Shown in pieces: positions 25,843 to 44,930 of a DNA stretch of 64,000 nt. The stretch spans positions 11,419 to 75,418 of the forward strand of contig JACQCE010000062.1 of the NCBI GenBank assembly GCA_016201765.1, written 5' to 3'. Made by a program: the position numbers and the translations under genes. The DNA is from Nitrospirota bacterium. GTDB taxonomy: Bacteria; Nitrospirota; Nitrospiria; JACQCE01. The stretch's first letter is position 1. Each line of letters begins with the position of its first letter. A model generated the notes under the pieces. It saw nothing but the letters and a program-made list of their open reading frames with translations, ran no database searches and was not told the DNA's origin.

Positions 25843-26031
25843 CACACGCCCCCCGGCACATCAACCGGTTTCAGGGCCCGCGAGGGAAGGCTTGCCTCGT
25901 CGAGTCCCCCCGCGCAAACATGAGCGGTCAGGGCGCTGAGGGAAATTCTCGGTCTCATCGGCCCAATCTGCTTGTGTTCCCCCCATTGCTTTTCCCTCCC
26001 CCCTGACATACCATCGGCGGAGCCTTCCGCC

Positions 26032-27627: not shown

Positions 27628-27972
27628 GTCGAGTATCAACAGTTGAAAAACGGGCCGTGGTGTTGTGTTGCGGCGCCCGGCTCGCAGCAGGATCATTTCC
27701 CCTCGTTTTATCTGCACTACTTCCAGCAACGGAAGGTTCAGTGTGGCCCGGAGCCGAAAGGATGCGCTCCGAAGGCTTGGCATTTTCTTTTTCCGCCCGT
27801 CTGTTGTTGAAGAATCACGCCTTTACAGGCTGGGATTCTTCGACATGAGTGGAGAAAGGCTCCTTGGTATCCGCTCGCTGACCCCGCCTTCAGAGGGCGG
27901 GGATTGCGCTCGCTATGCATGTTCGCCGCACATGCCCTCCGGGCGTGTGCACACCAACGGAGGTGCCGAGCC

Positions 27973-30159
27973 ATGAACCGGACACATCACATCATGCGGC
28001 CGATCGGATCCAGCGGGCGGCGTCTGCTCCTGCCCGCAAACCTTGTTGCAATCTGCGTGATCGGGCTGCTGGCCCCGCAGGCCGCACCGGCTGCACCAAC
28101 ACCGACTCACGACCAGCTTCAGCAGCGGCTCGGCCAGACCATCGTCATGGTGGCCCGGCACGATCAAGCGCTCCTGGACCGACAGGTGGAGCAGATGACC
28201 CGGCTGATGCGGGGAAGCACACGGTTCCAGCAGGGCCAGGCCGGGCGGATAGAGGAAAGTCTCGGGCTCGCCATCATCAAGACGGCGGGCTCGATTCAGG
28301 AGGAGCAGTCCGCTCTGAAGAGTCGCATGATCCTTATTGGCCGTGAGCTTGATCTGCTGTCGGAAGATTCCGCGGCCGGCCGTCAGACACAACTGGGGTG
28401 GGCGGTTCGCACGGCCGCGCAACGCGCGCCACAAGGCGGCGCGGCCTTTCAGGCCGCGCTGGGGAAGGAGATCACCCGGCTGGAACAGGTCCGGCAACGC
28501 ACGACCATCCGCCTGCAGGATGAGCTGCGCGCTCTGAAACGCCTGGACGCCGACTTTGCCCAAACCATTCCGCAACGTTACCAGAAGGCCATGGAGTCCA
28601 CCCGCCTGACGGTTCTCATGGCGGATGACTCCACTGTCGTCTGGACCGACCGACAACTCCAGGAATTGTCCCATCAGGTGCTGCAGCAACAATCTTCACA
28701 AGTCTATGCGCAACTGGCCGGCCTCACGCGGGCGGCCCTGACCGCGCCGGCCGGCGTCGGCGGGTTCATCGAATACGGCCTGGCCGCCATGACCGGAGCG
28801 ATGGCCGTCATGGTGTGGTTCGGCCTATCGACCAGAAAGGAGAGAGCCCCGTTGCCCGTCAATCCCACAGACGAGGCCGTGTCATCACTGCGCCGCTGGA
28901 GCATGCAAGGCGGCTCGGGGAACGGGGGCAACAGCCACGAGGCGAATATCCTGTCCCAGCTCGTCACATTCTTCAGCTGGCCCAGGGAGATCGTCTTCGG
29001 CAACAACGTGATCGGAACCATCGGGCGGTATGCCGAGAGGGAACGGATCAAGAGGGCGTTGGTGATCACGTCCCGGGACCTTCATCACCATGGCCTGCTC
29101 GAACCGCTGAAGGCATCCTTGTCGCACAGCGGGATTGCGTTCCGCGTCTACGACCACGTCGAGCACGACGTGCCCGACGTGGTCATCGCCAATGCCGGCA
29201 AAGAGTACCAACGAATGGCCACCGATCTGATTGTCGCAGTCGGCGGTGGGAGCGTCATTGACACGGCGAAAGCGGTGGGGATCCTTGCCACCAACGGTGG
29301 CCTCATCCAAGACTACGAAGGCTTGGACACCATCCCATCACCGCTGCCCCATTTTTTCGCCGTGCCCACCACCGCCGGCTGCGGCAGCGAAACGAGCCAG
29401 TTCTGCGTCGTGCTGGATACCGCGCACAAACGGAAACTGGAGATCGTCAGCCGTCTGGTCATTCCGCAGATGATCTTCATCGATCCGACGCTGATGGTCA
29501 GCATGCCGCGCGAACTGACGGCCGGCAGCGGAATCGATGCGTTAAGCAACGCGATCGAAGCCTACTGCTCCACGTGGGCCAGCCCCCTGACCGACACCCT
29601 GGCGCTGGACGCCGTCAGGCTGATCTCGGAGTCGTTGCGCACGGCCGTGGCCGACGGCAGCAATCTCGAAGCCCGGCGCCAGATGGCCGTGGCCGCATTT
29701 GAAGCCGGCCTGGCGTTCAACAACGCGCAGTGCGGAGCGGCGCACGCCCTGGGCCATCCGGTGGCCGGTCTGTTCAACGTGCCGGAGCGGGTGAGCGAAG
29801 CCATCTTGCTGCCGCATGTCATGCGGTACAACCTGGAAACCAACATGGCCAGGATGGCGCAACTGGCCGTGGCCATGGGGGAGTCGGTGGAAGGTCTCAC
29901 CCAACAGGAAGCGGCCGAGCAGGCGATCTCCGCCGTGCAATGGCTGCTGCTGGATATCGGTCTTCCAGCGACTTTTGACAAGCTTGGTGTCGCCAATGAC
30001 GCCATCCCCGAACTCGCCCGGCAAGCCGCGCAGGATTTCTTTCTGCGGACGAATCCTCGAACGCTCACCCGGGGGGAGATCGAGCAACTGTACCACCAAG
30101 CGTTTCAAAAGTTCGGCAGAGATACGGTGCATCGCAAAACCGCCGGCGTCATCCTGTGA
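27973..30159 (+). CDS. membrane-anchored TM / helical-domain / TM / Fe-ADH fusion protein, paralog B
   Basis: Same architecture and motifs as paralog A (about 60-80% identity in the ADH part). Shared N-domain motif AAQRxPxGGAAFQAAL and the TM segment GGFIEYGLAAMTGAMAVMVW. Confidence 0.8.
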   Translation: MNRTHHIMRPIGSSGRRLLLPANLVAICVIGLLAPQAAPAAPTPTHDQLQQRLGQTIVMVARHDQALLDRQVEQMTRLMRGSTRFQQGQAGRIEESLGLAIIKTAGSIQEEQSALKSRMILIGRELDLLSEDSAAGRQTQLGWAVRTAAQRAPQGGAAFQAALGKEITRLEQVRQRTTIRLQDELRALKRLDADFAQTIPQRYQKAMESTRLTVLMADDSTVVWTDRQLQELSHQVLQQQSSQVYAQLAGLTRAALTAPAGVGGFIEYGLAAMTGAMAVMVWFGLSTRKERAPLPVNPTDEAVSSLRRWSMQGGSGNGGNSHEANILSQLVTFFSWPREIVFGNNVIGTIGRYAERERIKRALVITSRDLHHHGLLEPLKASLSHSGIAFRVYDHVEHDVPDVVIANAGKEYQRMATDLIVAVGGGSVIDTAKAVGILATNGGLIQDYEGLDTIPSPLPHFFAVPTTAGCGSETSQFCVVLDTAHKRKLEIVSRLVIPQMIFIDPTLMVSMPRELTAGSGIDALSNAIEAYCSTWASPLTDTLALDAVRLISESLRTAVADGSNLEARRQMAVAAFEAGLAFNNAQCGAAHALGHPVAGLFNVPERVSEAILLPHVMRYNLETNMARMAQLAVAMGESVEGLTQQEAAEQAISAVQWLLLDIGLPATFDKLGVANDAIPELARQAAQDFFLRTNPRTLTRGEIEQLYHQAFQKFGRDTVHRKTAGVIL

Positions 30160-31869: not shown

Positions 31870-31989
31870 AAGGTAGCTAGGTCGTCAGGTAGCCAGGTGG
31901 CTAGACAAACAAATCAGTATTTCCCCGAGTGACCTAGCCACCTTTGCAGTTCCCAGCTCTACCTAGCCACCTAGTTACCCAGCCACCTT
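31870..31989. repeat. palindromic array of degenerate 8-bp units (GGTGGCTAGGT family), copy 3
   Basis: aaggtagctaggtcgtcaggtagccaggtggctag ... acctagccacctttgcagttcccagctctacctagccacctagttacccagccacctt. Shares its 5' end (AGAGAAGGTrGCT) with copy 2. Confidence 0.55.
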
Positions 31990-32000
31990 TTTTCCCTCTA

Positions 32001-32029
32001 TTGACTTCCTCCAAAACGACCGATAGGAT
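32001..32029 (+). promoter_or_regulatory. sigma70-like promoter TTGACT-N17-TAGGAT
   Basis: Directly after repeat copy 3. The -10 overlaps the first ATG of the ubiC-like ORF, so either the promoter or that start codon is misassigned. Confidence 0.3.
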
Positions 32030-32627
32030 GCCGATTGTGACGGTTCCATCGTCGAGCGTGCCGCCGATTGACCGCCTGCTCTCCTCGGTCAAATGGCTGA
32101 ATCCTGAGGAGTTTCTCTCCGGCGGAGGAGGTTTGCCCGCCCCCCTGTGGCGCGCCCTCCTCCTGACCGACGGATCAACGACCCTGTTTCTTCAGGCACT
32201 CTGCCGGACAACCATCACGCTGGAGATGATTGATCAACGGACGGCCCCCCTGCCGCCGCCGCTGACCGGCTTGCTGAAGATCGAACCGAACCGGCCGGTG
32301 CTGCAACGGCATGTCTGGCTGACCGACGGCCGCCGCCGGCTGGCCCTCGGCTATGCCCTCATTTCGCTCGAACAGCTCAGTCCCACGCTTCGGGAGCAAC
32401 TGGTCGCGGGCACGCGCCCCATCGGCCTGCTGGCCGATGAAGCGGGACGGTCGCTGCGCGATCAGTTGCAGGTGGGCAGTCTGACCGATGCCGGACTGGC
32501 CCGACAGTTCGGCGTCACGGCCGATACCTTCTGGTGCCGCCGCTATCGATTAAGAATTCCCGACGCCATGACGGCCGCCATCATCGAAATCTTCTCCCCC
32601 GTGTTGGATCACCTGCCGTCTCCGTGA
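32028..32627 (+). CDS. chorismate lyase (UbiC)-like protein, start uncertain
   Basis: LWRALLLTDGSTTLFLQAL resembles the UbiC DWLLLEDSMTKRFEQ region. Lies directly upstream of ubiA. Confidence 0.45.
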   Translation: MPIVTVPSSSVPPIDRLLSSVKWLNPEEFLSGGGGLPAPLWRALLLTDGSTTLFLQALCRTTITLEMIDQRTAPLPPPLTGLLKIEPNRPVLQRHVWLTDGRRRLALGYALISLEQLSPTLREQLVAGTRPIGLLADEAGRSLRDQLQVGSLTDAGLARQFGVTADTFWCRRYRLRIPDAMTAAIIEIFSPVLDHLPSP

Positions 32628-32655: not shown

Positions 32656-33540
32656 ATGAGCCGTGTGGCCGACAAGCTGATCGCCTTGGCCGAGCTGATC
32701 CGCCTGGAAAAACCCTACGGCGCGCTGCTGCTGCTCTGGCCCTCTCTCTGGGCCTTGATGATCGCCGGCGAAGGGCGTCCGCCGGTGTGGGTGGTCGCGC
32801 TCTTCTGTCTGGGCGCCTGGGTGATGCGCAGCGCCGGCTGCGCGATGAACGATCTGGCCGACCGCCGGATCGACGCGCAGGTGGCGCGCACGAAGAGCCG
32901 GCCGCTGCCGTCGGGCCGCCTGACGCCGGCCGACGCCGTCGGCGTGATCGCCGTGCTGCTCCTCGCGGCCGCCTGGATCGTCTGGCAACTGCCGCCGCTC
33001 ACCCGCTGGCTGAGCCTGCCCGGCGTCCTGCTGGCCGCGGGCTATCCGTTGACCAAGCGTTTTTTCCCCGCCCCCCAATTCGTCATGGGCGTCGCCTTCG
33101 GGTGGGGCGTGCCGATGGCCTGGTCGGCCGTGCGCGGAAACCTCGACCCGACCGCCTGGCTGCTTTTCTTCGCCACGGTCTGCTGGGCCGCCGCCTATGA
33201 CACGATCTATGCGCTCATGGATGTGGCCGACGACAGCCGGCTGGGCGTCCACTCGACCGCCCGCCTCTTCGGCCGGCAGAGCTGGCTGGCCGTCATTGGA
33301 TTGGAGCTCGCCATGCTGGTGCTGCTCGTCTGGGCCGGCCGCCGGGCCGATCTGCATCTGCTCTATTTTTCGTCGCTGGGGGCCGCCGGCCTCCTCTTCC
33401 TTTACCAGCTGTCGCATGTTAAAATGCAGCCCGATCGTGAGACGGCGTTTCGTCTCTTTCGCGCGCACGTCGGTGTGGGATTGGTGATTCTACTCGGTAT
33501 TGAGTTGGACTACGCCCTGATTCCAATGATCATCCGTTAA
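32656..33540 (+). CDS. ubiA: 4-hydroxybenzoate polyprenyltransferase
   Basis: UbiA prenyltransferase motifs NDLADRRIDAQVARTKSRPLPSG and YDTIYALMD. 9 TM helices. Confidence 0.85.
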   Translation: MSRVADKLIALAELIRLEKPYGALLLLWPSLWALMIAGEGRPPVWVVALFCLGAWVMRSAGCAMNDLADRRIDAQVARTKSRPLPSGRLTPADAVGVIAVLLLAAAWIVWQLPPLTRWLSLPGVLLAAGYPLTKRFFPAPQFVMGVAFGWGVPMAWSAVRGNLDPTAWLLFFATVCWAAAYDTIYALMDVADDSRLGVHSTARLFGRQSWLAVIGLELAMLVLLVWAGRRADLHLLYFSSLGAAGLLFLYQLSHVKMQPDRETAFRLFRAHVGVGLVILLGIELDYALIPMIIR

Positions 33541-33554: not shown

Positions 33555-34388
33555 TTGCCACACCACCGCCTCGTTCGATCGCTTGTGCTGCTCTCGGCCG
33601 TCATCCTGCCCTCCCTGTTCGGCGGTCCGGCGGGCTGTCAGCGACCCGCCGCCGCCCCGGGCATGGTCTGGATCCCCGGAGGCCCCTTCACCATGGGCAC
33701 CGATGAGACGGACGCGGAAGGGCGGGCACTGGAGTTCGGCCTGACCAAGCCGTGGTTTGAAGACGAGCATCCCACGCATACGGTCAACCTGCCCGGCTTT
33801 TATCTGGACCGTAATGAAGTGACCAACGCCGATTTTGCCGCCTATGTGGCTGCCACCGGCGCAAGGGTCCCGGGAACCTGGAAAGCCGCCACCTATCCCG
33901 GCGGCGAGTCGAACATGCCGGTGGCCAGCGTGAACTGGTACCAGGCGAATGACTATTGCGCCTGGGCGAAGAAACGGCTGCCGACCGAGGCGGAATGGGA
34001 GAAGGCGGCCCGGGGCACCGACGGACGACTCTATCCCTGGGGCAACGACTTCTCGCTCGACAAGGCGAATCTCATGTCCGGCTCGGTGCAGCCGGTGGGC
34101 CTGTTTGCGCGCGAGCCGAGCCCCTACGGCGTGAACGATCTGGTCGGCAACGTCTGGGAATGGACGGCGGACTGGTATCTGCCCTATCCGGGATCGACCG
34201 CCGCCTCAAAAGATTTCGGCCAGAAATTCAAAGTGGTGCGCGGCAAGTCCTGGACCAAGGGCTTCGGCCATCAGGAGAAGGCGGAGGTGAGCCAGATCAT
34301 CGCCCATGAAGCGCGCGGCGGCTTTCGGCTCTATTTCGATCCGGTTTTCGGATTCAACGACCTGGGGGTCAGATGCGCAAAATCTTAA
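33555..34388 (+). CDS. periplasmic FGE/SUMF1-fold (formylglycine-generating-enzyme family) protein 1, lacks the catalytic Cys pair
   Basis: FGE-sulfatase domain motifs (WIPGG.FTMG, HTVNLPGFYLDRNEVTN, RLPTEAEWEKAARG, NVWEWTADWY, GFRCA). Signal peptide. No CxxxxC near the C-terminus. Confidence 0.7.
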   Translation: MPHHRLVRSLVLLSAVILPSLFGGPAGCQRPAAAPGMVWIPGGPFTMGTDETDAEGRALEFGLTKPWFEDEHPTHTVNLPGFYLDRNEVTNADFAAYVAATGARVPGTWKAATYPGGESNMPVASVNWYQANDYCAWAKKRLPTEAEWEKAARGTDGRLYPWGNDFSLDKANLMSGSVQPVGLFAREPSPYGVNDLVGNVWEWTADWYLPYPGSTAASKDFGQKFKVVRGKSWTKGFGHQEKAEVSQIIAHEARGGFRLYFDPVFGFNDLGVRCAKS

Positions 34389-35470
34389 TCATGGCCGCAA
34401 GCATGCTTTACCTCGCGGCTGCGGCCAACGGGCAAACAACGGTGGCTCGGGGCGTGGGGGCATCGGAGGACCCTTCTTCGCTTGTGCCACACGGGCCCCC
34501 ACATTTAATGAAGCCCGCCTGCCGCCAGTGCCACATTGATGGGAAGAAACCCGTGGCCGATTACTCAAGCAATCCCGAATGCCGGGAATGCCATCTGCCT
34601 GACGGCAGAGCCTCCGGGCCGCCGACCGCCCCGGCCATTGCGGCGCCGGTTGCCGCCGGCGCGAATCCGCCGCATGCCGCGACCTCGGTCCAGTCTGGGG
34701 AGACGATCATCACGCAGAAAATGGTCTCCATCCCGGCCGGGCCGTTCTGGATGGGCAACAACGGCCGGGGCGCCGACGGTCCCGGCGACGAGGATGAACA
34801 GCCCCTGCATCAGGTCACGGTTGAGGCCTATTCAATGGACGTCTATGAAACCACCAATGCGATGTTCAAAGAGTTCGTCGACGCCGTCAACTATGCGACA
34901 CCCAAACTGTGGAAGAACGGCGTCTATCCAAGCGGCAAGGCCAACCATCCGGTCACGTACGTGTCATGGTTTGATGCGGAGGAATTCTGCCGGTGGGCCG
35001 GCAAGCGGCTGCCGACCGAGGCGGAATGGGAAAAGGCCGCCCGCAGCCCGGACAAACGGATCTTCCCCTGGGGGAATCAATTCGATCCGATGAAGGCCAA
35101 CACGCCGCAATACTGGATGGCCATCCATCAGAATGACACGGCTGATACCATGCCTGTCGGCAGTTTTGAGGCCGGGAAAAGCCCCTATGGCCTCTACGAC
35201 ATGTCGGGCAACGTCTATGAATGGGTCAATGATTGGTACACCCAGTATCCGGGCAACCGGTTTCCCAACGATCATTACGGCGCGAAGAACAAGATCGTCC
35301 GCGGGGGGTCGTGGTACGACTGCCTCTCCTACGGCTGCGGCTTGAGTTCCCCCACCTATAACCGCAGCCGGTTCAACCCAGACATCCGCAACAAGGGATT
35401 CGGATTCCGCTGTGCAAAATCCGCCCACGGACGCGCCAAATCCACAACCGGACAGCGAGGCGAGCCATGA
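34373..35470 (+). CDS. diheme cytochrome c fused to FGE/SUMF1-fold domain, retains C-x4-C (DCLSYGC)
   Basis: Two CXXCH motifs (CRQCH, CRECH) in the first 80 aa after a signal peptide. C-terminal FGE fold with the Cys pair positioned as in the catalytic Cys pair of human FGE (C-x4-C). Confidence 0.7.
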   Translation: MRKILIMAASMLYLAAAANGQTTVARGVGASEDPSSLVPHGPPHLMKPACRQCHIDGKKPVADYSSNPECRECHLPDGRASGPPTAPAIAAPVAAGANPPHAATSVQSGETIITQKMVSIPAGPFWMGNNGRGADGPGDEDEQPLHQVTVEAYSMDVYETTNAMFKEFVDAVNYATPKLWKNGVYPSGKANHPVTYVSWFDAEEFCRWAGKRLPTEAEWEKAARSPDKRIFPWGNQFDPMKANTPQYWMAIHQNDTADTMPVGSFEAGKSPYGLYDMSGNVYEWVNDWYTQYPGNRFPNDHYGAKNKIVRGGSWYDCLSYGCGLSSPTYNRSRFNPDIRNKGFGFRCAKSAHGRAKSTTGQRGEP

Positions 35471-36294
35471 AACAATGGTCATTGTTCACGTGGGCCGCGC
35501 TCGCGGCGCTGCTCGTGCTATCGGCTGCCTGCCAGAAACCGCCCCACGGCATGGTGCTCATTCCGGCCGGGGAGTTCATCATGGGCACGGACGAAGTGGA
35601 TACGGACAAGATCGGGCTCGGATACGGCATCGTCAAGCCCTGGTTCGACGACGAACATCCGAAGCGGCGGTTCTCCCTTCCCGCCTATTACATCGACCAA
35701 TACGAGATTACCAACGAGCAATACCAGGCGTTTCTGGTGGAGAGCAATCGCCGTCCGCCCCGGTACTGGCCCAACAATCAGTATCCGGCCGGCAAGGATC
35801 GCCATCCGGTGACGTGGATCACCTGGGAGGATGCCGACGCCTATTGCCGGAGGGCCGGCAAACTGTTGCCGACAGAGGCGCAGTGGGAGAAAGCGGCCCG
35901 GGGGCCCAACGGCCTGATCTATCCCTGGGGCAATGACTTTGATCCGGCCAAGGCGAACGTCGGCGGCTCAGCCGGCGGCACCAAACCGATCGGCAGCATC
36001 GAAGCGGGCAAGAGTCCGTACGGCGTGTACGACATGACCGGCAACGTCTGGGAATGGACGGCCGATTGGTATGAGCCCTACCCCGGCGCGCAATTCACCG
36101 CCGGGTTCTACGAGGATAAACTGGGGCACCGGTACAAGGTGATCCGTGGCCTCTCCTGGTCGCCGATCGGCCACTATGACGCCGAAGACGCCAAGGCGGT
36201 CATGCGCCACTACGCACGGGCGTCCTACCGGTTGTTTTACTATCCGAACGACGGGCTGGAGGATCTGGGGTTCCGATGCGTCAAACCGGCATAA
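35467..36294 (+). CDS. periplasmic FGE/SUMF1-fold lipoprotein 3, lacks the Cys pair
   Basis: Lipoprotein-like signal (LVLSAAC). FGE-fold motifs. ATGA overlap with the upstream gene. Its last about 100 nt are duplicated at 38017..38119. Confidence 0.7.
   Translation: MKQWSLFTWAALAALLVLSAACQKPPHGMVLIPAGEFIMGTDEVDTDKIGLGYGIVKPWFDDEHPKRRFSLPAYYIDQYEITNEQYQAFLVESNRRPPRYWPNNQYPAGKDRHPVTWITWEDADAYCRRAGKLLPTEAQWEKAARGPNGLIYPWGNDFDPAKANVGGSAGGTKPIGSIEAGKSPYGVYDMTGNVWEWTADWYEPYPGAQFTAGFYEDKLGHRYKVIRGLSWSPIGHYDAEDAKAVMRHYARASYRLFYYPNDGLEDLGFRCVKPA
36188..36291 (+). repeat. 103-bp direct repeat, copy 1 (3' end of FGE-fold gene 3); copy 2 at 38017..38119
   Basis: About 97% identity between the copies. 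They bracket the low-GC segment 36292..38016. Confidence 0.85.
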
Positions 36295-36316
36295 TAGTCC
36301 CAAGAACCTCGGTTCC

Positions 36317-36345
36317 TTGAATCTTAAAGGTATTTCTCCTATAAT
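36317..36345 (+). promoter_or_regulatory. sigma70 promoter TTGAAT-N17-TATAAT inside the low-GC cassette
   Basis: Perfect -10 hexamer. Near-palindrome AAGAACCTCGGTTCCTT overlaps the -35. Confidence 0.5.
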
Positions 36346-36418
36346 TTCATCATTCTAAGTCTTTGTGGCCTTATTATCTCGGCCGGTGTTGATCCATGTA
36401 CACGTCAAGGAGGCTGGT

Positions 36419-38014
36419 ATGGAGTCCTCCCTTCAAGCTGCAAAGCCAAACTTCCTGATTGTCATTGGCGTGCTCACCGCTATCGTATGCGTTGCAACAT
36501 CGGCAACCTGTGCAACAGGCATCATTTCTGACGTTCCAGAAGCCAAAAATCTTCTCATCCAAGCAAGCCATATCGCCGCAAAAATTAATGACAAATGGCA
36601 TATTAATGAACAACATGCCCTGGAACGAATTGCCCTCGCCCAGATCAATATTCAGGCACTTGAAGATGCTTTCAACACACTGTCGCTCATCAAAGAGGGA
36701 GACAAAGATCAGATATTGATCGCGATTGCTAAAGCTCAAACCCAAATAGGTGACGTCAAGGCCGCTCAACAAACAGCCAAAATGTTTAGATCAGGAATCA
36801 ACCAAAGCCATGCTCTGGCGGCAATCGCCGCCGCACAAGCACAATCTGCAAACGTCGATGCTGCACTAAAAACCGCATCCCTCATTGATCCTAAGACATC
36901 AGGGTATGAAATAGCCTACCAACAAATTTCTCGAGCCCAAATAGCAGACGGCAATCTAGACAGCGCACTAGTGACGGCCTCCCCCATTATGGACATCACG
37001 CCCTATGCTTTATGGGGCGCCATGAACGACCTCGTCTCAATTGGGAATCTGGATAGTGCCCGTCAATTAGCATCAAAAATCCCTGACCCATATCAGAAAG
37101 GATATGCCCTTGAAGGGTTGGTCGTGGCGCAGCTTCAAACAGGAGACATTCAGGGAGCGTTACACACTGCCGCCTCCATTGAAGCCGGCCATCCTCAAGC
37201 AAGCGCGCTCAAAGCCATTGCCGATAAACAGTTGAAAACTGGAGACAGCTCGGCTGCCCGACACACCCTCCAAGACGCCATTCAAGCGACAACACGCATT
37301 ACTAATAGCGGTGATATTGCCAAATCGGACATCTTGTGGCGTATTGCCGCCACTCAAGCGGCCGCTGGCGATCTCAATGGGGCAAAAGTGACCGCCGCTG
37401 CCATTAAAACCGAAGCCCATAAAGCCTTCGCCTTTCACGATATTGCCAGAGCACAGATTGCTCGCGGCGATATCGAGGGCGCACGAAAAACGATCAAGCA
37501 GATTGCAGAAGAACCGATCAGCCAATCCAATACTCGCTCCGTCGCTGAGCTAGACATTGCCGGTGCTCAGGTCAAGGCTGGCCATCTTTCCGACGCAAAG
37601 GCAACTGTCGACAGCCTAAACAAAGAGTATCGACAGACCGGGCTGGGTACAATTGCCAGGGTGCAGGCTGAGACAGGGGATTTCACTGGAGCCATGGAAA
37701 CTGTTGCCGCGATCAAAGACACCGACGTCAAATCTTCTACACTGCATGAAATCGCCCAAGCACAAACAAATGCAGGGGATTTTAAAGGTGCCGTGCAAAC
37801 AGTCGCCTTGATTCCAGATCAAGAACCGCAATGGCAGAAATTCGACACCCTGCGTGACATTTCTCGCGCTAGAGTAAAGACAACAAACGCAAAAGAGGTT
37901 CTTGCTTGGGCGAATACGATTACAAATCCGCTGGAGCATTCGGCCGCTTTACTCGGCATCGCCGAGGGCTTAATAAAAGAAAACCACTCACTGCCCCATA
38001 TCACTGCCCCATAA
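36419..38014 (+). CDS. secreted/lipoprotein-like protein with about 12 tandem 33-aa alpha-helical (HEAT / PBS-lyase-like) repeats, encoded on a low-GC cassette
   Basis: Repeat consensus IAxAQxxxGDxxxAxxTAxxI. N-terminal hydrophobic signal FLIVIGVLTAIVCVATSATC. Strong RBS AAGGAGG. GC clearly lower than the flanks. Confidence 0.7.
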   Translation: MESSLQAAKPNFLIVIGVLTAIVCVATSATCATGIISDVPEAKNLLIQASHIAAKINDKWHINEQHALERIALAQINIQALEDAFNTLSLIKEGDKDQILIAIAKAQTQIGDVKAAQQTAKMFRSGINQSHALAAIAAAQAQSANVDAALKTASLIDPKTSGYEIAYQQISRAQIADGNLDSALVTASPIMDITPYALWGAMNDLVSIGNLDSARQLASKIPDPYQKGYALEGLVVAQLQTGDIQGALHTAASIEAGHPQASALKAIADKQLKTGDSSAARHTLQDAIQATTRITNSGDIAKSDILWRIAATQAAAGDLNGAKVTAAAIKTEAHKAFAFHDIARAQIARGDIEGARKTIKQIAEEPISQSNTRSVAELDIAGAQVKAGHLSDAKATVDSLNKEYRQTGLGTIARVQAETGDFTGAMETVAAIKDTDVKSSTLHEIAQAQTNAGDFKGAVQTVALIPDQEPQWQKFDTLRDISRARVKTTNAKEVLAWANTITNPLEHSAALLGIAEGLIKENHSLPHITAP

Positions 38015-38016
38015 AT

Positions 38017-38119
38017 AACGCCAAGGCGGTCATGCGCCACTACGCACGGGCATCCTACCGGTTGTTTTACTATCCGAACGACGGGCTGGAGGATCTGGGG
38101 TTCCGGTGCGTCAAACCGG
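38017..38119 (+). pseudogene. orphan duplicated 3' end of FGE-fold gene 3 (direct repeat copy 2)
   Basis: Encodes ...AKAVMRHYARASYRLFYYPNDGLEDLGFRCVKPV with no upstream gene body. Confidence 0.7.
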
Positions 38120-38125
38120 TATAGC

Positions 38126-38250
38126 AGTGACGAGTGTCGAGTGACAAGTGGCAAAAATGAAAATGCCGAATTTCGAATAAAGATCGCCTAACAATACTTC
38201 TACTCGACACTTGTCACTCGTCACTTATCACTATCACTCATCACTCGCCA
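38126..38250. repeat. palindromic array of GTGACGAGTG-type units
   Basis: gtgacgagtgtcgagtgacaagtggc ... AT-rich centre ... ctcgacacttgtcactcgtcacttatcactatcactcatcactcgccac. Confidence 0.55.
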
Positions 38251-38454
38251 CTATTCCTTCTTCCCCGTCGTATCAATCTTCAACCACGCGCTGATCGGAC
38301 AGTAGGCCGTCACGGCCGTCAGCAGGCCGGCAACCCCCACAATCCCGAAGACCACCTTCCAGACCAGTTGATCGGTGGCAAAAAACAGCGCCAGACAGAG
38401 AAATCCAACCCCGAAGCGAAAGATCCGGTCCACCATGCCGACGTTCTGCTTCAT
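38251..38454 (-). CDS. small membrane protein, DUF2892 (YgaP-like) family
   Basis: Two TM helices with the RIFRFGVGFLCLAL...AYCP pattern typical of DUF2892. Confidence 0.45.
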   Translation of the reverse strand: MKQNVGMVDRIFRFGVGFLCLALFFATDQLVWKVVFGIVGVAGLLTAVTAYCPISAWLKIDTTGKKE

Positions 38455-38520
38455 GACGACACCTCTGCGACCTTCGTCATTGCTGGAGAGCGGACTTGAA
38501 CCCACCCCTACGGCACAGGG

Positions 38521-39300
38521 CTATTCCTTCGTCGGGGGCTCGATCGTCTTGTCGGAGCGAAGCGTGCTCAGATAGGCGGTGATGGCCAGCGCCTCGTCAT
38601 CGGAGAGGCCGAAGTTTGGCATTTTCGTATCGCGCTTGATCGACTGCGGCGCCTTGATCCACCGGTAGACCCACCAGGGATTCAACCGGATGCCCGACCG
38701 GCTCAGATCGGGCCCCACATGGCCGCCCTTCTCATCGATGGCATGGCAGGAGGAGCAGACAAATTTTGACCGATAGAGATGCGCTCCCTTCTCCTCAAGC
38801 GCCTTCAACTGATCCGGTTTGTAGTCGGCCAGGCTGATCTTGGCGGTGACCTGGGCGGCATGCCGTTCCGTGCTCAACGGCTTGCTGAAATCGACCTTGC
38901 CCGCCTCATTCTTCTGCAGCGTGCGGACATAGGCCACGATCGACCAGCGCTCCTCGTCCGACAGCGTGTATTTGAACGTGGGCATGATCGCCGGCACCCA
39001 GTTGTCCTCGGGCTTGGTGTCCTTCTCTTCCACGATATCCCGGCTGAGCGTGGCGTAGATTTCCTCGTTCGTCTGGGGGCCGATGTACTCTTCCCTCGAG
39101 TCGGTCAAATCGCGGGGATGCGGGTCCAGGAATTTGGCGTTGAAGCCGTCACCCTTCCCCTTCGGCCCGTGGCAATGAATGCAGTAGTACTGGAAGAGCT
39201 CCCGCCCCTTCGTCACATGCGGATCCTGAAAAAAGCTGCATCCGCCAACCCCCACCATAATCGCCAGCACGGCGACCGCCCATCCGATCAGCTGTTTCAT
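38521..39300 (-). CDS. diheme cytochrome c
   Basis: Two CXXCH motifs (CIHCH, CSSCH). Signal peptide. Confidence 0.8.
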   Translation of the reverse strand: MKQLIGWAVAVLAIMVGVGGCSFFQDPHVTKGRELFQYYCIHCHGPKGKGDGFNAKFLDPHPRDLTDSREEYIGPQTNEEIYATLSRDIVEEKDTKPEDNWVPAIMPTFKYTLSDEERWSIVAYVRTLQKNEAGKVDFSKPLSTERHAAQVTAKISLADYKPDQLKALEEKGAHLYRSKFVCSSCHAIDEKGGHVGPDLSRSGIRLNPWWVYRWIKAPQSIKRDTKMPNFGLSDDEALAITAYLSTLRSDKTIEPPTKE

Positions 39301-39593
39301 GGCGTTGATCCCTTCTTCTTCGATCCGGTCTCTTTTGAACCGGTTTTTTCCAGGTCCGCCACGGCGGCCTCGGCCAGACCGATGATCCGTTCCATCTGAC
39401 GGATCCGCTCCTCCGGTGTCACGGCGGGCCCCAGTATCACCGGCTCGGGGCCCTGTTCCGCTTCGGATTCTTCGACCCCCTCAATGACGACCTTCTTGTG
39501 CACCGGCAACGCCAGCCAGCCACCGAGGATCACCACCACGCAGACGGTGATAAAGACGGTCAGAAACAATCCCTGATCTTTCGGCGGCTGCAC
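39297..39593 (-). CDS. small membrane protein, function unknown
   Basis: 98 aa. One TM helix. Stop/start overlap with its neighbours in the operon. Confidence 0.35.
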   Translation of the reverse strand: MQPPKDQGLFLTVFITVCVVVILGGWLALPVHKKVVIEGVEESEAEQGPEPVILGPAVTPEERIRQMERIIGLAEAAVADLEKTGSKETGSKKKGSTP

Positions 39594-39596
39594 GCG

Positions 39597-40676
39597 TCAC
39601 TCCCGAAACATGATGGCCCGGACCGTGAGGATGACGATCGACGTCATCACCACCACCCAGGAAGTCAGGGCGATCGGCCGTTTGAAAATGTTCCGCTCTG
39701 GGCTCCGGTCGATGAACGGCAACGCCGCCAGGAGCAGCAGGAAGAGCGTAGGGAGCAGAATAGCTCCAAGGAACTCGCCAAACTCGCCGGAGAAGAGGAA
39801 CGCCAGCGCCGGATCCCTGAGCAATTGGAACAGGAACAGGAAATACCATTCCGGTTCCGGGTTCAGTCCGGAGGCGACCGGACTGGCCTCCTCCAGCATT
39901 TCGTGCGGCCATCGAACGGCCAGCGTGCAGACGATGACGAACACCAGCCCCATGACCACAATATCCTTCCAGACCTGCGTCGGGAAGAAGTATTCCATCT
40001 TCTCCTTGAGCTCTTTCGTGGTGCCTCGAAACGGGCCCGCCGGACCGGCTTTTCGAAACAGAAAAATATGCAGACCGGCCACCGCCATCAACGCGGCGGG
40101 CAGGATCATGATGTGGATCACAAAAAAGCGGCTCAGCGTCTGGGCCCCAGGCACGGGACCGCCCCGAAGGAAGCGCCCCAGGAAATCACCGAGGATCGGC
40201 GCCTTGTCGACGATCTCAATGCCGATCACCGTGGCCCAGTAGGACCGCTGGTCCCACGGCAGCAGATAGCCGGTAAATCCGAAGCCGATGACGATCAGGA
40301 ACAACAGGAGGCCGGCCAGCCAGACCATCTCGCGCGGTTTCTTGTAGGCGCCCCAGAGATAGACCTGGGAGATGTGCATGATCAGCACCGCCACCATGGC
40401 GGACGATCCCCACAGGTGATAGCTGAGGATGAACCAGCCGAAGTCGACCTTTTCGATGATGTATTTGGTGCTTTCCCAGGCGTGATCGGCGGTGGGGGCG
40501 TAATAGAACATCAACAGCAGGCCGGTGACCGCCTGCATGATGAAGATGAACAAGAGCGCCGACCCGAAGACGTAGGCGTAGCGGGCGCCGCCGGCCATCG
40601 GCTCGTTGAGCATCTTGGCCTGGAGGCCCTTCAGGTCGATCCGTTCGTCAATCCATCGATAGACAGCCTCAAACAT
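39597..40676 (-). CDS. cytochrome b (bc1/b6f complex cytochrome b subunit)
   Basis: Heme-ligand and Qo-site motifs (YYAPTADHAWESTKYI, LPWDQRSYWAT/PEW-like, HIMILP). 8 TM helices. Start at the internal ATG (MFEAVYRW), 2 nt after the Rieske stop. Confidence 0.8.
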   Translation of the reverse strand: MFEAVYRWIDERIDLKGLQAKMLNEPMAGGARYAYVFGSALLFIFIMQAVTGLLLMFYYAPTADHAWESTKYIIEKVDFGWFILSYHLWGSSAMVAVLIMHISQVYLWGAYKKPREMVWLAGLLLFLIVIGFGFTGYLLPWDQRSYWATVIGIEIVDKAPILGDFLGRFLRGGPVPGAQTLSRFFVIHIMILPAALMAVAGLHIFLFRKAGPAGPFRGTTKELKEKMEYFFPTQVWKDIVVMGLVFVIVCTLAVRWPHEMLEEASPVASGLNPEPEWYFLFLFQLLRDPALAFLFSGEFGEFLGAILLPTLFLLLLAALPFIDRSPERNIFKRPIALTSWVVVMTSIVILTVRAIMFRE

Positions 40677-40678
40677 AA

Positions 40679-41617
40679 CTAGGCGATCCGGACCTGTTCG
40701 GCCTTGCCGGCCTTGAACTCCATGTCGATGATTTCCACCTCGCCGCTGCCGGAAATTTTCAACGGGAGCACGTCGAGGCGGCGCGGCGCGGGACCATCCA
40801 ACACCGTGCCGCTTGGATCGAAGACGCTCAAATGACAGGGACAGACGAAAACCTGGCCAAACCGCTTGTGTTTCCGCCAGCGAAAGGCGCAGCCCAGATG
40901 CGTGCACTTGCCGGAGAGCACGGCGATGTCCGCGTCCTTCTTGTTGACCCAGATCAGGGTGCCCTTGTCATCACGGAATTCATGATCGCCGTTCGGATAG
41001 ATTTTGTCCCTCAATTCCGGCGTCAATTTGATCACCCAGTGGGATTTCTCGTAGTGCCGGGTGATGTATCCTTCGAGAACCGTTTTCTGGAATTTAAAGA
41101 GCTTGGGCACCCCGGGCTCCTGCCCCATGGCGTTGATCGCGCCCAGTTTGATCCAGAGGTTGGTGAACGGTTGATACAGCGGATAGATCAGATAGCGCAC
41201 CACCGGGAACACCAGGGGCAGCGCCAACATGGCGCCGATCACGTTTGTAAACCGGGTGAAAAACTGCCGGCGGGACAGGTCCTTCTCGAGCACGGGCAGC
41301 GGCACCAGCACCCCGCCGGGAGTCACCTGATCGAGATTGCGCTCCAGATGGGGAATCTCCACATCGTGGATCGTGACGAAATCGTCGCGCCGAAACGGCG
41401 CGGACGCCGCCGCAAGGGCGCCGGAGGCGCACGTCAACCGAACCTCCCGCTCGGTGCAGCCGGCGATGAGACCGTCGATCGCCACGACCGATTCCCGGCC
41501 GTCGGCCTTGATCACCAGATGGCTGACGGACTTGGCAATCGGATCGGCGATGACGTACGAGACTTCGCCGACCTCCCGATCGGTGCAGATGACTTTGGCT
41601 GTGATCCTGGGCTGCAT
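40679..41617 (-). CDS. Rieske [2Fe-2S] protein with about 110-aa N-terminal extension
   Basis: CTHLGC...CPCH Rieske boxes. Preceded by a TM helix and an extra N-terminal domain. Confidence 0.8.
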   Translation of the reverse strand: MQPRITAKVICTDREVGEVSYVIADPIAKSVSHLVIKADGRESVVAIDGLIAGCTEREVRLTCASGALAAASAPFRRDDFVTIHDVEIPHLERNLDQVTPGGVLVPLPVLEKDLSRRQFFTRFTNVIGAMLALPLVFPVVRYLIYPLYQPFTNLWIKLGAINAMGQEPGVPKLFKFQKTVLEGYITRHYEKSHWVIKLTPELRDKIYPNGDHEFRDDKGTLIWVNKKDADIAVLSGKCTHLGCAFRWRKHKRFGQVFVCPCHLSVFDPSGTVLDGPAPRRLDVLPLKISGSGEVEIIDMEFKAGKAEQVRIA

Positions 41618-41632
41618 CCCGTCACCGCACCA

Positions 41633-42493
41633 TTACTTGACAGAATAGCCCGGCGGGAAGACCGGCTGGGGGGTATCCGCGGCCGTATTTTTGAGCGTCA
41701 GCAGGAACGTGACAAGGGCGTGCAGTTCTTCTTCGCTCATGACTTCGGCAAATTTCTCCGGCATCTTGTCCTTCCCCTCCGCCTGTTTTTCAAATCCCTT
41801 GGCATGCCAGGCTTTGGGGTGGAAGACCTTGTCCTTGAGCTGCGCCTCGGTGGCCAGGTTGCCGATGTTCTCAAGAATGGGCCCGCGCTTTTTGCTCTTC
41901 TTGCCGCCGATCTGGTGGCAGTTGTAGCATTCGTGATCCTGGAACACCAGTTTGCCCCGCTCGACCGGATCCATGCCGGAGAGATTGGCGGCGGGCGCCG
42001 AGGCGGGCTTCGCCGGGGCGGAGGCCTCAACCGATCCGACCTCCAAATGGGCGCCGGCGGCCTGCAACTGGTTCAGCTTGGCCGCCAGCTCATCCGCCTT
42101 GGCTGAGAGCTCTTTCGTCCGTTGCATCAAGGAGGCGGTTTGTTCATCGCTTAGACGATATTTGACGGTTTTCCTCGCGATGCCGGCGACTTCAATCTTC
42201 GAATCAAATTGGGGCAGCAGGGTGCCGGCGGTCACCAGAATCGCCGAACAAATCAGGTAAAACACGATAATGCCGAGCCCGGCCTTCCAGCCCATGAGCG
42301 GCGTGGGCGATGGCGCGTCAAGCGCGACAAAAATGATCAATCCCAGCACCGCATAACTGACATACATCCATTGAAAAATCCTGGGAAAGCCCAACGATCC
42401 GCTGACAAACCACAACGCCACGGCGGCGACCACCGCGGCCACGAGCTTCCAGCGGATAATCTGCATCCAGCTTTTGGGTGCGTGTGCGCTCAT
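41633..42493 (-). CDS. membrane-anchored monoheme cytochrome c
   Basis: C-terminal CYNCH. N-terminal TM segments. ATGA overlap with the upstream bd-like gene. Confidence 0.7.
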   Translation of the reverse strand: MSAHAPKSWMQIIRWKLVAAVVAAVALWFVSGSLGFPRIFQWMYVSYAVLGLIIFVALDAPSPTPLMGWKAGLGIIVFYLICSAILVTAGTLLPQFDSKIEVAGIARKTVKYRLSDEQTASLMQRTKELSAKADELAAKLNQLQAAGAHLEVGSVEASAPAKPASAPAANLSGMDPVERGKLVFQDHECYNCHQIGGKKSKKRGPILENIGNLATEAQLKDKVFHPKAWHAKGFEKQAEGKDKMPEKFAEVMSEEELHALVTFLLTLKNTAADTPQPVFPPGYSVK

Positions 42494-44406
42494 GATTGCG
42501 CCCCCTTCTTCGCCGTATGCCCGGCTCCGAGCGCCAGCCAGATCGCCAGGCTGACCACCGCGAAGAAAATGACCGCCAAGATCGTAATCACCACGGCTGA
42601 ATAGCCCAACGTCGGCGTAAAGTTGTTCGGGCTCAAATCCGGGAGAACATCGTAGATGTGAAAATATTTTCTCAGCGAGGAACGGATCACACCCATCAAT
42701 CCCATCGTCCAGATTGCGCCGAAGGCCAGAAAGATCAACGCAAACTGCGAGGAAAAGTCGATTTTGCCCCATCGGATCGTGCCGCGTTTGATCGCCCGTG
42801 TGTACAGGATGAAGCTCACCAGAATCATCAACACCATCAGCCCCACGGCGGTCAGTTTGGCCGGCATCAACGCCAGAAAATCCCAGTTCGACGGCAGCGA
42901 CAGAAACGCTTCATTCTCGTCGGTCAGCGAGGAGACGGCCCCCACAAACGCGTGCGGCGTCATCCAGGTGGCGTTCCCGAGCAGCAGGATCAGGAAGGCG
43001 CATTTGATCACCAGTTCACGACGGCGCAGGCCGAACCGCTCGAGCGCCAGCAGCAACTGCGCCAACAACCGGACGGGCAGCACCAACAGACTGCGGCCCG
43101 GCGACGACGACGAACCGCGCGTCATCGCATTGGACGAACTGGCAATGAGCACCGCCAGGGGGAAGAGGAGGAGCAGCAACGACAAGCCCAGCCCCTCGTG
43201 GGCATGCAAGGAGAAGACGTAGAAAATCGATCCGAGGAGCGCGCCCTGCCCGACCAGAAACGCGATCCCTGCGCCCCACTGCCCGTTGTACATCTGCCCC
43301 AGCCCCGGGACGATAGCCGACAACACACCCGCGACAAGTTTCTGGGACACCGCAGTGGAATAATCCGGGATCTCAATCCGTTTCAGACTCATCCAGATGT
43401 AATAGGCGCTTGCCAGAAAAATCAGGCCGATCATCCCCCCTTGCATGATGAAAAACATCGAGAGTTGGTCGGCCATCATGTACGGACCGATCGAAGCGTC
43501 ATAATCATAGAATTCGGCGGCGTACACATACCCCATCAACGGCAACACCAGCAACGCGCTGATCCCGATGAAGTTGCCGACGAACCCCATCCAGTCGTAG
43601 TAGGCGCGTTCTTCATCCGTCTTGGAGAACATGTACATGTACGCGGCAATCAATCCGGTGATAAACCCGCCGAATGTGACATTGCCGGCCAGACGGTGGA
43701 AGTTCATCGGCATCCAGCTGAAGTTGTTCATCTTGTCCCAGAGCGTCGCCGTCGTCTCGATAAAGTCCCGAAGGTTCATGGTCATCCCCTCGGGGGCCTT
43801 GACCGGCGTATTCATAAACGACGTGGGACCATCGATCGCGAACAACGTCACGATCCCGATCACATTGAGCAGCACCCCGATGGCCAGGTGGCGGCCCTTC
43901 TTGTCGCCCTGCAGTCCATCCCATGTGTACCAGTAGAAATACAGGACCAACGTCTCGAGGATAAACAACAGGGGATAGCCGATGCCCATGATCAGAAAGA
44001 AGTGATTGAACAACCAGCCGGTGAAATCGGGATAAAGGGTCACCAGCGCCAGCAGGAAGAAGCCCCCCGTCAGGGCGGTCATGCTGTAGAGGATGGCCGT
44101 GATCTTCGTGACTTCCTTGGCGAGCCGGTCGTATTTCGGATCATGGCTCCGCACCCCCAGCCATTCCGAGATCACCACGAAAATCGGCGCCCCAAGAACA
44201 AACGCGGCAAACAGAATATGGAGCTGGGCCAGCGCCCAGACCGCCACCCGATTGCCCACATACGGGAAATGCGCGGGCTTGAGGATTTCAATCGTTTGGG
44301 CCAGCACCGACGGGGCGACCAGCGCCACCAAGATGGCGCAGGCAGTCAGCACAACCATTGCTCGCCCCCAGCCCGAATGGCGGGATGTCCGCATTCCAGC
44401 TCTCAT
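42490..44406 (-). CDS. cytochrome bd-like oxidase subunit I (CydA-like) membrane protein, no cydB partner
   Basis: 14 TM helices. N-terminal similarity to CydA (LHILFAAFVLG vs YHFLFVPLTLG; IGYPLLFILETLVLYFYWYTW vs [23 protein letters not shown]). Confidence 0.65.
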   Translation of the reverse strand: MRAGMRTSRHSGWGRAMVVLTACAILVALVAPSVLAQTIEILKPAHFPYVGNRVAVWALAQLHILFAAFVLGAPIFVVISEWLGVRSHDPKYDRLAKEVTKITAILYSMTALTGGFFLLALVTLYPDFTGWLFNHFFLIMGIGYPLLFILETLVLYFYWYTWDGLQGDKKGRHLAIGVLLNVIGIVTLFAIDGPTSFMNTPVKAPEGMTMNLRDFIETTATLWDKMNNFSWMPMNFHRLAGNVTFGGFITGLIAAYMYMFSKTDEERAYYDWMGFVGNFIGISALLVLPLMGYVYAAEFYDYDASIGPYMMADQLSMFFIMQGGMIGLIFLASAYYIWMSLKRIEIPDYSTAVSQKLVAGVLSAIVPGLGQMYNGQWGAGIAFLVGQGALLGSIFYVFSLHAHEGLGLSLLLLLFPLAVLIASSSNAMTRGSSSSPGRSLLVLPVRLLAQLLLALERFGLRRRELVIKCAFLILLLGNATWMTPHAFVGAVSSLTDENEAFLSLPSNWDFLALMPAKLTAVGLMVLMILVSFILYTRAIKRGTIRWGKIDFSSQFALIFLAFGAIWTMGLMGVIRSSLRKYFHIYDVLPDLSPNNFTPTLGYSAVVITILAVIFFAVVSLAIWLALGAGHTAKKGAQS

Positions 44407-44411
44407 GTCCG

Positions 44412-44930
44412 TCACTGTGCCGGCGGTGGGACGTACTCTTTGCTGTGATCGGCCGGTTGCCCTCCATGTGCGAAGGTATTCTCGTAGGCCATCACCTTCC
44501 AGCGTTGTTCCTCGGTCAATTTGGTCTTCCACGCCTTCATCTTGGTGTTCGGCACCCCTTCGGAAATTCTCCAGAACCAGAAGCTGTCGGAGAAGTGTTT
44601 CATGTTCTCACCCACGCGGAAATCGCGGGCCCCGCGCTTCTTGGGCTTGCCGTCCCGGCCGTGGCAGCTGGCGCAGTTGACGTCCACGTCGAGTTTGCCT
44701 TCAAAAATATCTTTGCCTTCCGCCACAATCTTGGGATCCATCCACCACCCGTCCGGCATGTGCTTGTCGGCATATTCGGCGGGCACCGGCGGGAAGACCA
44801 CCGGGTTTTCCCCGCCCCCCTCGCCGCACCCGAAGATGAATAATAAAGACATGACCGACAGCCCCGCCGCCACTCGACCCATCTGCACTCGCCCCATCCG
44901 ATCCGACTCCTTTCTGTGCCGTGTCACCAA
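44412..44930 (-). CDS. monoheme cytochrome c lipoprotein
   Basis: CASCH motif. Signal with lipobox-like LLFIFGC. Confidence 0.7.
   Translation of the reverse strand: MVTRHRKESDRMGRVQMGRVAAGLSVMSLLFIFGCGEGGGENPVVFPPVPAEYADKHMPDGWWMDPKIVAEGKDIFEGKLDVDVNCASCHGRDGKPKKRGARDFRVGENMKHFSDSFWFWRISEGVPNTKMKAWKTKLTEEQRWKVMAYENTFAHGGQPADHSKEYVPPPAQ

Follow-up and report, generated by a model that had tools for sequence, protein, structure and literature searches.

The 64-kb stretch of Nitrospirota DNA analysed here (64,000 nucleotides of contig JACQCE010000062.1, hereafter the window) encodes three tandem proteins with the fold of the formylglycine-generating enzyme (FGE). The middle protein, which we call dhFGE, carries two CXXCH heme-binding motifs near its N-terminus and a cysteine pair in the loop equivalent to the copper site of FGE. 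The three genes represent the distal part of an operon that starts with homologs of mpqC and mpqA, whose products act in the synthesis of methyl-plastoquinone (mPQ), and operon linkage of dhFGE to such validated mpq genes is conserved in, and restricted to, the Nitrospirota clade. As best reading of these data, we propose a periplasmic oxidase that is wired to cytochrome c and performs or assists C1 oxygenation in mPQ synthesis, to which we assign a probability of roughly 0.35.

The window is chromosomal DNA with a G+C content of ~62%, and the closest homologs of dhFGE among the matches listed come from Nitrospiria and Manganitrophaceae genomes. Each of the three open reading frames (ORFs), designated FGE1, dhFGE and FGE3, matches the Pfam family PF03781 over its full length (E = 5e-51, 1e-58 and 4e-51, respectively; 174–199 bits as compared to a cutoff of 23.3, with profile positions 2–255 covered). 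As read from the sequence, FGE1 and dhFGE overlap by 16 nt and dhFGE and FGE3 by 4 nt (ATGA), in agreement with the preliminary description of three overlapping same-strand paralogs in one operon. That description overlooked, however, that mpqC and mpqA, genes of quinone head-group synthesis, precede the trio in the same operon (Table 1). The gene order is mpqC-mpqA-FGE1-dhFGE-FGE3, with gaps of 28 nt between mpqC and mpqA and of 14 nt between mpqA and FGE1. Genes upstream of the operon are divergently oriented, and its 3' side is flanked by a low-GC inserted gene followed by genes for a cytochrome bc complex and a bd-like oxidase on the other strand. The MpqC-like protein also matches the NCBIfam model cyano_chori_ly, albeit below its cutoff. 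A ubiD gene is absent from the 64-kb window. Among the ORFs of the window that encode 60 aa or more, none contains the sulfatase signature [CS]xP[SA]Rx4[TSG]G, which bears out the earlier remark that no sulfatase gene is adjacent; a role of the trio in sulfatase maturation was rejected for this reason.

Homologs of dhFGE were collected by scanning one genome per GTDB species, of which the best 80 genome loci were used, and from a protein listing comprising the best 120 members; signal peptides and lipoboxes were assigned by eye. In the trio, dhFGE alone possesses CXXCH motifs, and both lie after the ~21-residue signal peptide and ahead of a Pro/Ala-rich linker. Both motifs are present in 110 of the 120 homologs listed (50–92% identity), the remaining ten being short, N-terminally truncated calls. 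The motif starts are spaced by 19–21 residues in nearly all members (~15 residues between motifs), and the six heme-motif residues are the sole invariant positions within the N-terminal 80 residues. None of the curated cytochrome c models in Pfam reaches its threshold on this region, the best matches being Cytochrom_c3_2 and Cytochrome_C7 (E = 0.006–0.007, 17 bits versus a cutoff of 25), and the homolog alignment reveals no conserved distal His or Met within the heme module. From the initial proposal of a fused diheme cytochrome c, the exported CXXCH pair outside the signal peptide is retained.

The eight cysteines of dhFGE comprise four in the heme motifs, two that form the conserved pair of the fold and the two of a C-x4-C pair. 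The latter sits between a conserved GGS and an R...GFRC motif, i.e. in the segment holding the copper ligands of FGE, and the consensus GGSW[YF][DN]C[LM]xYGC is retained in all 120 homologs; judged from these homologs, the pattern is not due to chance. Heme motifs and Cys pair co-occur across ~240 homologs listed when Nitrospirota and the sister family described below are taken together. Both cysteines of the pair align exactly with the Cu-ligand cysteines of Streptomyces coelicolor FGE (6MUJ), which has only two cysteines in this segment, with one inserted residue. For human FGE, phmmer and hhalign differ in the register of the pair and MAFFT aligns neither cysteine, an ambiguity that arises because in human FGE the pair is followed, five residues further on, by another cysteine. 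Given the clean alignment with the S. coelicolor enzyme and the ambiguous ones with its human counterpart, the pair appears to reside in the same loop and very probably at the same two positions. The earlier claim that C-x4-C coincides with the catalytic pair of FGE holds for the loop and for the S. coelicolor ligands, with an ambiguous register for human FGE.

The AlphaFold model of dhFGE has an overall mean predicted local distance difference test (pLDDT) score of 68. Values are mostly 85–96 over residues 111–220, 60–66 at the heme motifs and below 50 at residues 304–333, which include the Cys loop, as well as in most of the region before the FGE domain. Foldseek returned CalU17, ToxD and FGE as top matches of the model (E = 1e-14 to 1e-18), with a probability of 1.00 for FGE, CalU17, ToxD, EgtB and PvdO; the FGE fold of dhFGE is thereby confirmed at the level of the predicted structure. 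None of the proteins of the trio reaches an FGE-family equivalog of NCBIfam, and databases label the dhFGE family merely 'formylglycine-generating enzyme family protein'.

FGE1 and FGE3 contain three cysteines each, one of which (C28 and C22, respectively) directly follows the hydrophobic stretch of the signal peptide in a lipobox-like position, while the other two form the conserved fold pair. Hence, every cysteine is accounted for, and the flanking paralogs are devoid of the C-x4-C pair, as originally noted, and of heme motifs. Both are probable lipoproteins according to their sequences, and a lipobox-like cysteine follows the signal sequence in most Cys-less orthologs. In addition, 52 of 56 Cys-less paralogs carry a GH motif in the loop equivalent to the Cys-pair loop, and several arginines are kept too. 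Conservation of the GH motif and of the lipobox cysteine argues that the Cys-less partners are not decayed copies. In a neighbour-joining tree of the paralogs, all heme-bearing proteins group in a single clade, and those without the Cys pair are spread over several. A separate family of secreted FGE-fold proteins, which lacks hemes and the Cys pair, has the loop RGGSWSDLPKYLLTYGRFKLPPETRNSYTGFRCAK and is unlinked to mpq genes, occupies the Nitrospira loci L053–L069.

The quinone mPQ has been described in aerobic Nitrospirota and is reported from this phylum only (Elling et al., PMC11874023). MpqC, MpqA and MpqD/X were validated by complementation, including the versions of Candidatus Manganitrophus, and mpqD/X is missing from Nitrospira and Leptospirillum (PMC11874023), which both make mPQ. 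The same study describes the pathway as mosaic and the mpq genes as not colocalised, except for a cluster in Leptospirillum (PMC11874023). Hydroxylation at C1 is the sole oxygen-adding step of the Nitrospirota pathway and lacks an assigned enzyme (PMC11874023, PMC12998194): 'No clear ubiH homologs' were found (PMC11874023) and 'a candidate protein ... has not yet been identified' (PMC12998194). Our literature search on FGE-type proteins in conjunction with quinone synthesis or cytochrome c retrieved no account of the dhFGE family.

The survey of other genomes suggested at the outset did recover diheme-FGE fusions, namely at 48 GTDB species loci, all from Nitrospirota or unclassified bacteria. 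Together with the window these make up 49 loci, whose neighbouring genes were mapped by tblastn. Of the 35 loci for which 3.5 kb or more of upstream sequence is available, 32 have mpqA and/or ubiD on the same strand up to 7 kb upstream of dhFGE (36/39 when at least 1.5 kb is required). Homologs of mpqC precede mpqA in 21 of 35 related loci, a Cys-less paralog is adjacent to dhFGE in 27 of the 32 loci whose upstream and downstream sequences extend over 3.5 and 1.2 kb or more, respectively, and FGE3 orthologs are located downstream of dhFGE in 28/43. The genes occur in at least four orders, including mpqC-mpqA-FGE-dhFGE-FGE as in the window, mpqC-FGE-mpqA-ubiD-dhFGE(-FGE), mpqA-ubiD-FGE-dhFGE-FGE and, in Manganitrophus, FGE-mpqA-ubiD-dhFGE-FGE. 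In the called genes of L001 and L003, which represent Manganitrophus and another lineage, the stop codon of ubiD and the start codon of dhFGE have a base in common. Unbiased clustering of the remaining neighbouring ORFs yielded no family present in more than 12 of the 49 loci, and no sulfatase was found among the conserved neighbours in these loci.

In one case, MpqA and dhFGE are even joined in a single protein. That is, the 612-residue ORF P0083 (L175, 3876–5714) consists of full-length MpqA (UbiA family) and mature dhFGE. In place of the dhFGE signal peptide, the fusion has the last hydrophobic helix of MpqA, and the next gene encodes a Cys-less FGE. Published UbiA-family structures have nine helices and cytoplasmic catalytic loops. 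If MpqA is built likewise, its C-terminus would be periplasmic, a location that its hydropathy count is too crude to confirm, and would lie on the side where c-type hemes are attached.

The diheme architecture extends beyond Nitrospirota. An exhaustive representative search, although dominated by giant multi-FGE-domain proteins, yielded three diheme members of divergent sequence. These pointed to a sister family that shares the architecture of dhFGE, has an almost identical catalytic loop and carries the labels Thermodesulfobacteriota, Nitrospinota and 'Deltaproteobacteria'. A metagenome scan with generic patterns revealed ~14 loci of the diheme type out of 80. Two CXXCH motifs are present in 112 of the 120 sister-family members listed and the motif GGSW.[DN]C..Y.C in all of them; seven members have a single CXXCH and retain both cysteines of the pair. 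In the loci examined, the genes are arranged as [monoheme cytochrome c]-dhFGE-FGE(-FGE), the cytochrome c gene often being located immediately upstream. In the Nitrospinota loci dhFGE lies between lptD and alaS, and in those of Thermodesulfobacteriota it follows a gene for a SurA-like peptidyl-prolyl isomerase (PPIase) inside a multiheme cytochrome cluster. Two loci, L094 and L161, carry two tandem diheme-FGE genes and then one Cys-less paralog.

Taken together, it is quite probable that the module is a heme- and Cys-dependent redox enzyme of the periplasm, and on balance the evidence favours a functional tie to MpqA and mPQ in Nitrospirota. An action on the product of MpqA or MpqD is suggested by the operon structure, by rearrangement of the genes without loss of linkage, by the translational coupling to ubiD and by the MpqA fusion; C1 oxygenation is proposed because it is the one unfilled reaction of the mPQ pathway. 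That the module itself is the C1 hydroxylase or an oxidative decarboxylase is a tentative assignment. Somewhat more doubtful is the full version, in which dhFGE and its lipoprotein paralogs are the missing mPQ C1 oxygenase, operating at the periplasmic face with electrons from the cytochrome c pool instead of NAD(P)H.

In mechanistic terms, the trio would constitute a membrane-attached redox module in the periplasm. dhFGE would be exported by Sec and acquire two c-type hemes on its minimal N-terminal module, while its C-x4-C pair would take the place of the Cu(I) site of FGE, the centre probably being Cu(I) here as well. The Cys-less lipoproteins may form a complex with dhFGE and so anchor it to the inner membrane on its outer side, or may bind and present the lipid substrate. 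FGE requires O2 and two external electrons per turnover; in dhFGE, electrons would move between a periplasmic cytochrome c and the Cys-pair (copper) site via the two hemes, which may thus provide an FGE-type O2-activating centre with two electrons per turnover. The substrate would be prenylated 4-hydroxybenzoate or the prenylphenol arising from MpqA (and MpqD), in which the C1 oxygen is installed either by hydroxylation after decarboxylation or, where the cluster lacks ubiD, by oxidative decarboxylation. That FGE-fold proteins take part in the biosynthesis of small molecules has precedents in PvdO, ToxD and CalU17. We also count in favour that the operon adjoins genes for quinol-using enzymes, the cytochrome bc complex and the bd-like oxidase. 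The 'electron-transfer-coupled periplasmic oxidase' of the preliminary description is still the most economical reading, and is backed by the upstream monoheme cytochrome c genes of the sister loci.

Several observations speak against a C1 oxygenase. In the AlphaFold model, the Cys loop and the heme module are of low confidence, so their geometry is tentative. The gene fusion is found on a single metagenomic contig only, and synteny inside one phylum is not fully independent evidence. Among the best 80 loci and 120 proteins, no dhFGE came from a genome named Nitrospira or Leptospirillum, and the Nitrospira loci L053–L069 hold the heme-less, Cys-less paralog only. ubiA or ubiD were never found beside the sister family, neither in six loci with Pfam gene calls nor in ~11 inspected by BLAST, and the most basal Nitrospirota locus (L050) has an arrangement like that of the sister family. 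Since the sister phyla keep the module without quinone genes and mPQ is reported from Nitrospirota only, the ancestral function of the module seems not to have been mPQ-specific. The FGE mechanism relies on the substrate thiol for a third copper ligand, a group that phenols do not possess. We also know of no periplasmic step in any quinone pathway. Finally, in 6 of the 49 loci a gene for a class A flavin adenine dinucleotide (FAD) monooxygenase directly follows the mpqA-ubiD-FGE-dhFGE-FGE cluster. This protein is distantly UbiH/Coq6-like (TIGR01988, 111 bits versus a cutoff of 224) and belongs to a family of 86 proteins at E up to 1e-30, with labels including Manganitrophaceae, Nitrospiraceae and Nitrospira. 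As a conventional, hitherto unreported candidate, it is the main rival of dhFGE for the role of C1 hydroxylase in mPQ synthesis. The class A flavin monooxygenases UbiH, UbiI, UbiF and PlqH perform the proposed reaction, prenylphenol C1 hydroxylation, and some bacteria encode them in a cluster together with ubiA and ubiD; in fold, cofactors and compartment they are unrelated to dhFGE.

If the flavin monooxygenase is the C1 hydroxylase, the module could use the quinone pool as a quinol or phenol dehydrogenase at the membrane surface. Its FGE fold would bind the head group of a prenyl-quinol, mPQH2 or, in the sister phyla, menaquinol, and electrons would pass via the hemes to cytochrome c. This explanation accounts for the module in phyla without mPQ and for the frequent preceding monoheme cytochrome c gene, lipoprotein partners suit an enzyme at the membrane surface, and bc-complex and bd-like oxidase genes are located nearby in the window and in ~11 related loci. 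Nevertheless, we consider it unlikely, as a respiratory enzyme is rarely found embedded in a biosynthetic prenyltransferase or decarboxylase, coupled to it in translation or fused with it, and no quinol-binding motif or membrane subunit was identified. Moreover, the flavin monooxygenase needed for hydroxylation, although on hand, is part of the cluster at only 6/49 loci and resides elsewhere in an unrelated conserved context of a HAD hydrolase, a monooxygenase and a 760-aa protein without known function. A further point for a dehydrogenase comes from PvdO, a periplasmic FGE-fold protein that is named dihydropyoverdine dehydrogenase in NCBIfam. Like the activity considered here, that of PvdO is the oxidation of an aromatic dihydroxy ring in a small molecule, the pyoverdine chromophore, and does not concern a sulfatase; in contrast to dhFGE, PvdO lacks hemes and the Cys pair and serves a different pathway. 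Membership of the trio in the PvdO family was rejected (52–59 bits versus a cutoff of 500). ToxD (toxoflavin, 7SPQ) and CalU17 (calicheamicin, 6VQP) are likewise FGE-fold proteins encoded in small-molecule clusters and are top structural matches of dhFGE, but the matched entries have no heme-domain annotation, no link to a prenyltransferase operon is known for them and their identity to dhFGE is ~31%.

Rather improbable is a protein-directed activity as in FGE itself, by which a cysteine of a periplasmic or membrane protein would be converted to formylglycine or a disulfide, with cytochrome c giving or taking electrons and a regulatory or historical link to mpq genes. dhFGE does share with FGE (SUMF1; 6MUJ, 6S07, 5SSZ) the fold (Foldseek E ~1e-14), the arrangement GGS...C-x4-C...R...GFRC, in which both cysteines of C-x4-C align with the catalytic pair of S. 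coelicolor FGE, and the conserved fold Cys pair; its chemistry would likewise require O2 and two electrons, and a substrate thiol, as needed in the FGE mechanism, would be at hand in a protein. Outer-membrane biogenesis genes also lie beside dhFGE in sister loci (LptD in L088 and L170, SurA-like PPIase in L085 and L169). However, dhFGE differs from FGE by the fused N-terminal diheme module, the periplasmic location, the two Cys-less lipoprotein paralogs, the quinone operon and the absence of a sulfatase from the window, as well as by the extra residue before the first cysteine and a different loop after the pair (GLSSPxYNRSRF). A conserved gene for a candidate substrate was not found across the 49 loci, all cysteines of the partner paralogs are already assigned, the NCBIfam equivalogs of the FGE family are not reached, and synteny with mpq genes and the MpqA fusion would be left unexplained. 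The best partial NCBIfam matches of the trio (~110 bits) are to the sulfoxide and selenoxide synthases EgtB, OvoA and SenA, which share a C-terminal FGE-like domain. These enzymes are cytoplasmic whereas the trio is secreted and lacks their DinB-like N-terminal domain, and membership was rejected (44–110 bits versus cutoffs of 360–420, matching the C-terminal part of the profile only).

There is a slim chance that the C-x4-C pair provides axial ligands to the hemes (His/Cys) in place of a copper site, in which case dhFGE would be a low-potential enzyme of the TsdA/SoxAX/DsrJ type acting on a sulfur compound or another small molecule. This would fit with a heme module devoid of a conserved distal His or Met of its own, with co-occurrence of hemes and Cys pair in both families and their joint absence from the paralogs, and with genes for DsrE, TusA and rhodanese in the vicinity of a single sister locus and of a single locus with the flavin monooxygenase. 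On the other hand, the seven sister members with one CXXCH still keep both cysteines, the pair falls exactly on the copper ligands of S. coelicolor FGE, and clustering of the 49 loci revealed no conserved sulfur-metabolism genes near the Nitrospirota loci. A non-catalytic periplasmic scaffold with purely structural hemes and cysteines is highly improbable: PorK, GldK and GldJ are FGE-fold lipoproteins without catalytic cysteines just as FGE1 and FGE3, two of the three proteins here, and give weak NCBIfam (GldK, GldJ) and PDB (PorK) matches, but the lipoproteins of the trio accompany a probably redox-active paralog, invariant heme motifs and Cys pair over hundreds of homologs point to redox chemistry, scores for GldK/GldJ (64–90 bits versus 350) are far under the cutoff, and membership in these families was rejected (16–90 bits versus cutoffs of 350–458) with no type IX secretion genes nearby.

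Table 1. Features of the operon and of dhFGE in the window, and loci of related genes in other genomes
Feature	Position or loci	Strand	Remarks
mpqC-like chorismate pyruvate-lyase, operon gene 1	31944..32627	+	PF01947 E = 4.6e-15, 56 bits vs cutoff 22
mpqA/ubiA, 4-hydroxybenzoate polyprenyltransferase	32656..33540	+	TIGR01474 299 bits vs cutoff 275; PF01040 E = 5e-62
FGE1, Cys-less FGE-fold paralog, probable lipoprotein, 277 aa	33555..34388	+	Cys28 after hydrophobic stretch; GH motif 238-239
dhFGE, diheme FGE-fold protein, presumed catalytic subunit, 365 aa	34373..35470	+	PF03781 over residues 115-349
dhFGE signal peptide, residues 1-21, Sec-type (MRKILIMAASMLYLAAAA, followed by NGQ)	34373..34435	+	read from sequence
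Heme-binding motif 1, CRQCH, residues 50-54	34520..34534	+	invariant in homolog alignment
Heme-binding motif 2, CRECH, residues 70-74	34580..34594	+	invariant in homolog alignment
Pro/Ala-rich linker, heme module to FGE domain	34595..34714	+	length and sequence vary across homologs; pLDDT <50
C-x4-C pair CLSYGC, residues 317-322, within GGSWYDCLSYGC	35321..35338	+	invariant; loop equivalent to FGE copper site
FGE3, second Cys-less FGE-fold paralog, probable lipoprotein, 275 aa	35467..36294	+	Cys22; GH motifs at 220, 235
Sister-family loci	L085, L087, L088, L169, L170, L171; L089-L101, L161		motif GGSW.[DN]C..Y.C
Class A FAD monooxygenase loci	L041, L043, L044, L045, L047, L049; L172-L174		first six: ~+1.75 kb after dhFGE

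Further features were observed around the operon. A 111-nt direct repeat (36188–36298 and 38018–38128, 95% identical) copies the last ~37 codons of FGE3 and brackets a segment of low GC content (36365–38014; 0.50 as compared to 0.63 in the operon), which encodes a 549-aa TPR/FimV-like repeat protein and has its own promoter-like site at 36317–36345. This segment resembles a foreign cassette whose insertion at the FGE3 3' end was accompanied by duplication of the target. The second repeat copy is followed by a 25-nt inverted repeat (38126–38150/38208–38232). The adjoining respiratory cluster on the minus strand (38251–44532) encodes a YgaP-like membrane protein, a diheme cytochrome c that is also found near the FGE cluster in ~11 related loci, a small ORF, cytochrome b, a Rieske protein, cytochrome c and, as the bd-like oxidase, a protein of 680 aa in which one domain resembles cytochrome bd subunit I. 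On the other side of the operon, two paralogous proteins of the iron-type alcohol dehydrogenase family (23479–25842 and 27904–30159) flank an MFS transporter gene (25972–27318) and have N-terminal extensions of 350–390 residues, each without a Pfam match.

The fold and the superfamily of these proteins are already known. New with respect to the literature found are a diheme fusion that is accompanied by obligatory Cys-less lipoprotein paralogs, its spread over several phyla, and its incorporation into, and fusion with, a quinone operon; the analysis also defines a large family that was hidden under a generic FGE-family label. Independent of the quinone question, the diheme-FGE fusion across several phyla suggests a route by which an FGE-type centre can obtain electrons in vivo. 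For mPQ synthesis, the trio and the rival flavin monooxygenase provide a concrete gene set for the existing complementation assays. Should the hydroxylase reading prove right, the trio would come closer to being a quinone-biosynthetic enzyme of a new kind, providing the first periplasmic step in any quinone pathway and the first FGE-type centre that has its electron supply built in and acts on a substrate other than a thiol. High-potential quinones serve to date when aerobic metabolism arose, and quinone synthesis fed by cytochrome c would be economical for chemolithoautotrophs, which spend energy on making NAD(P)H.

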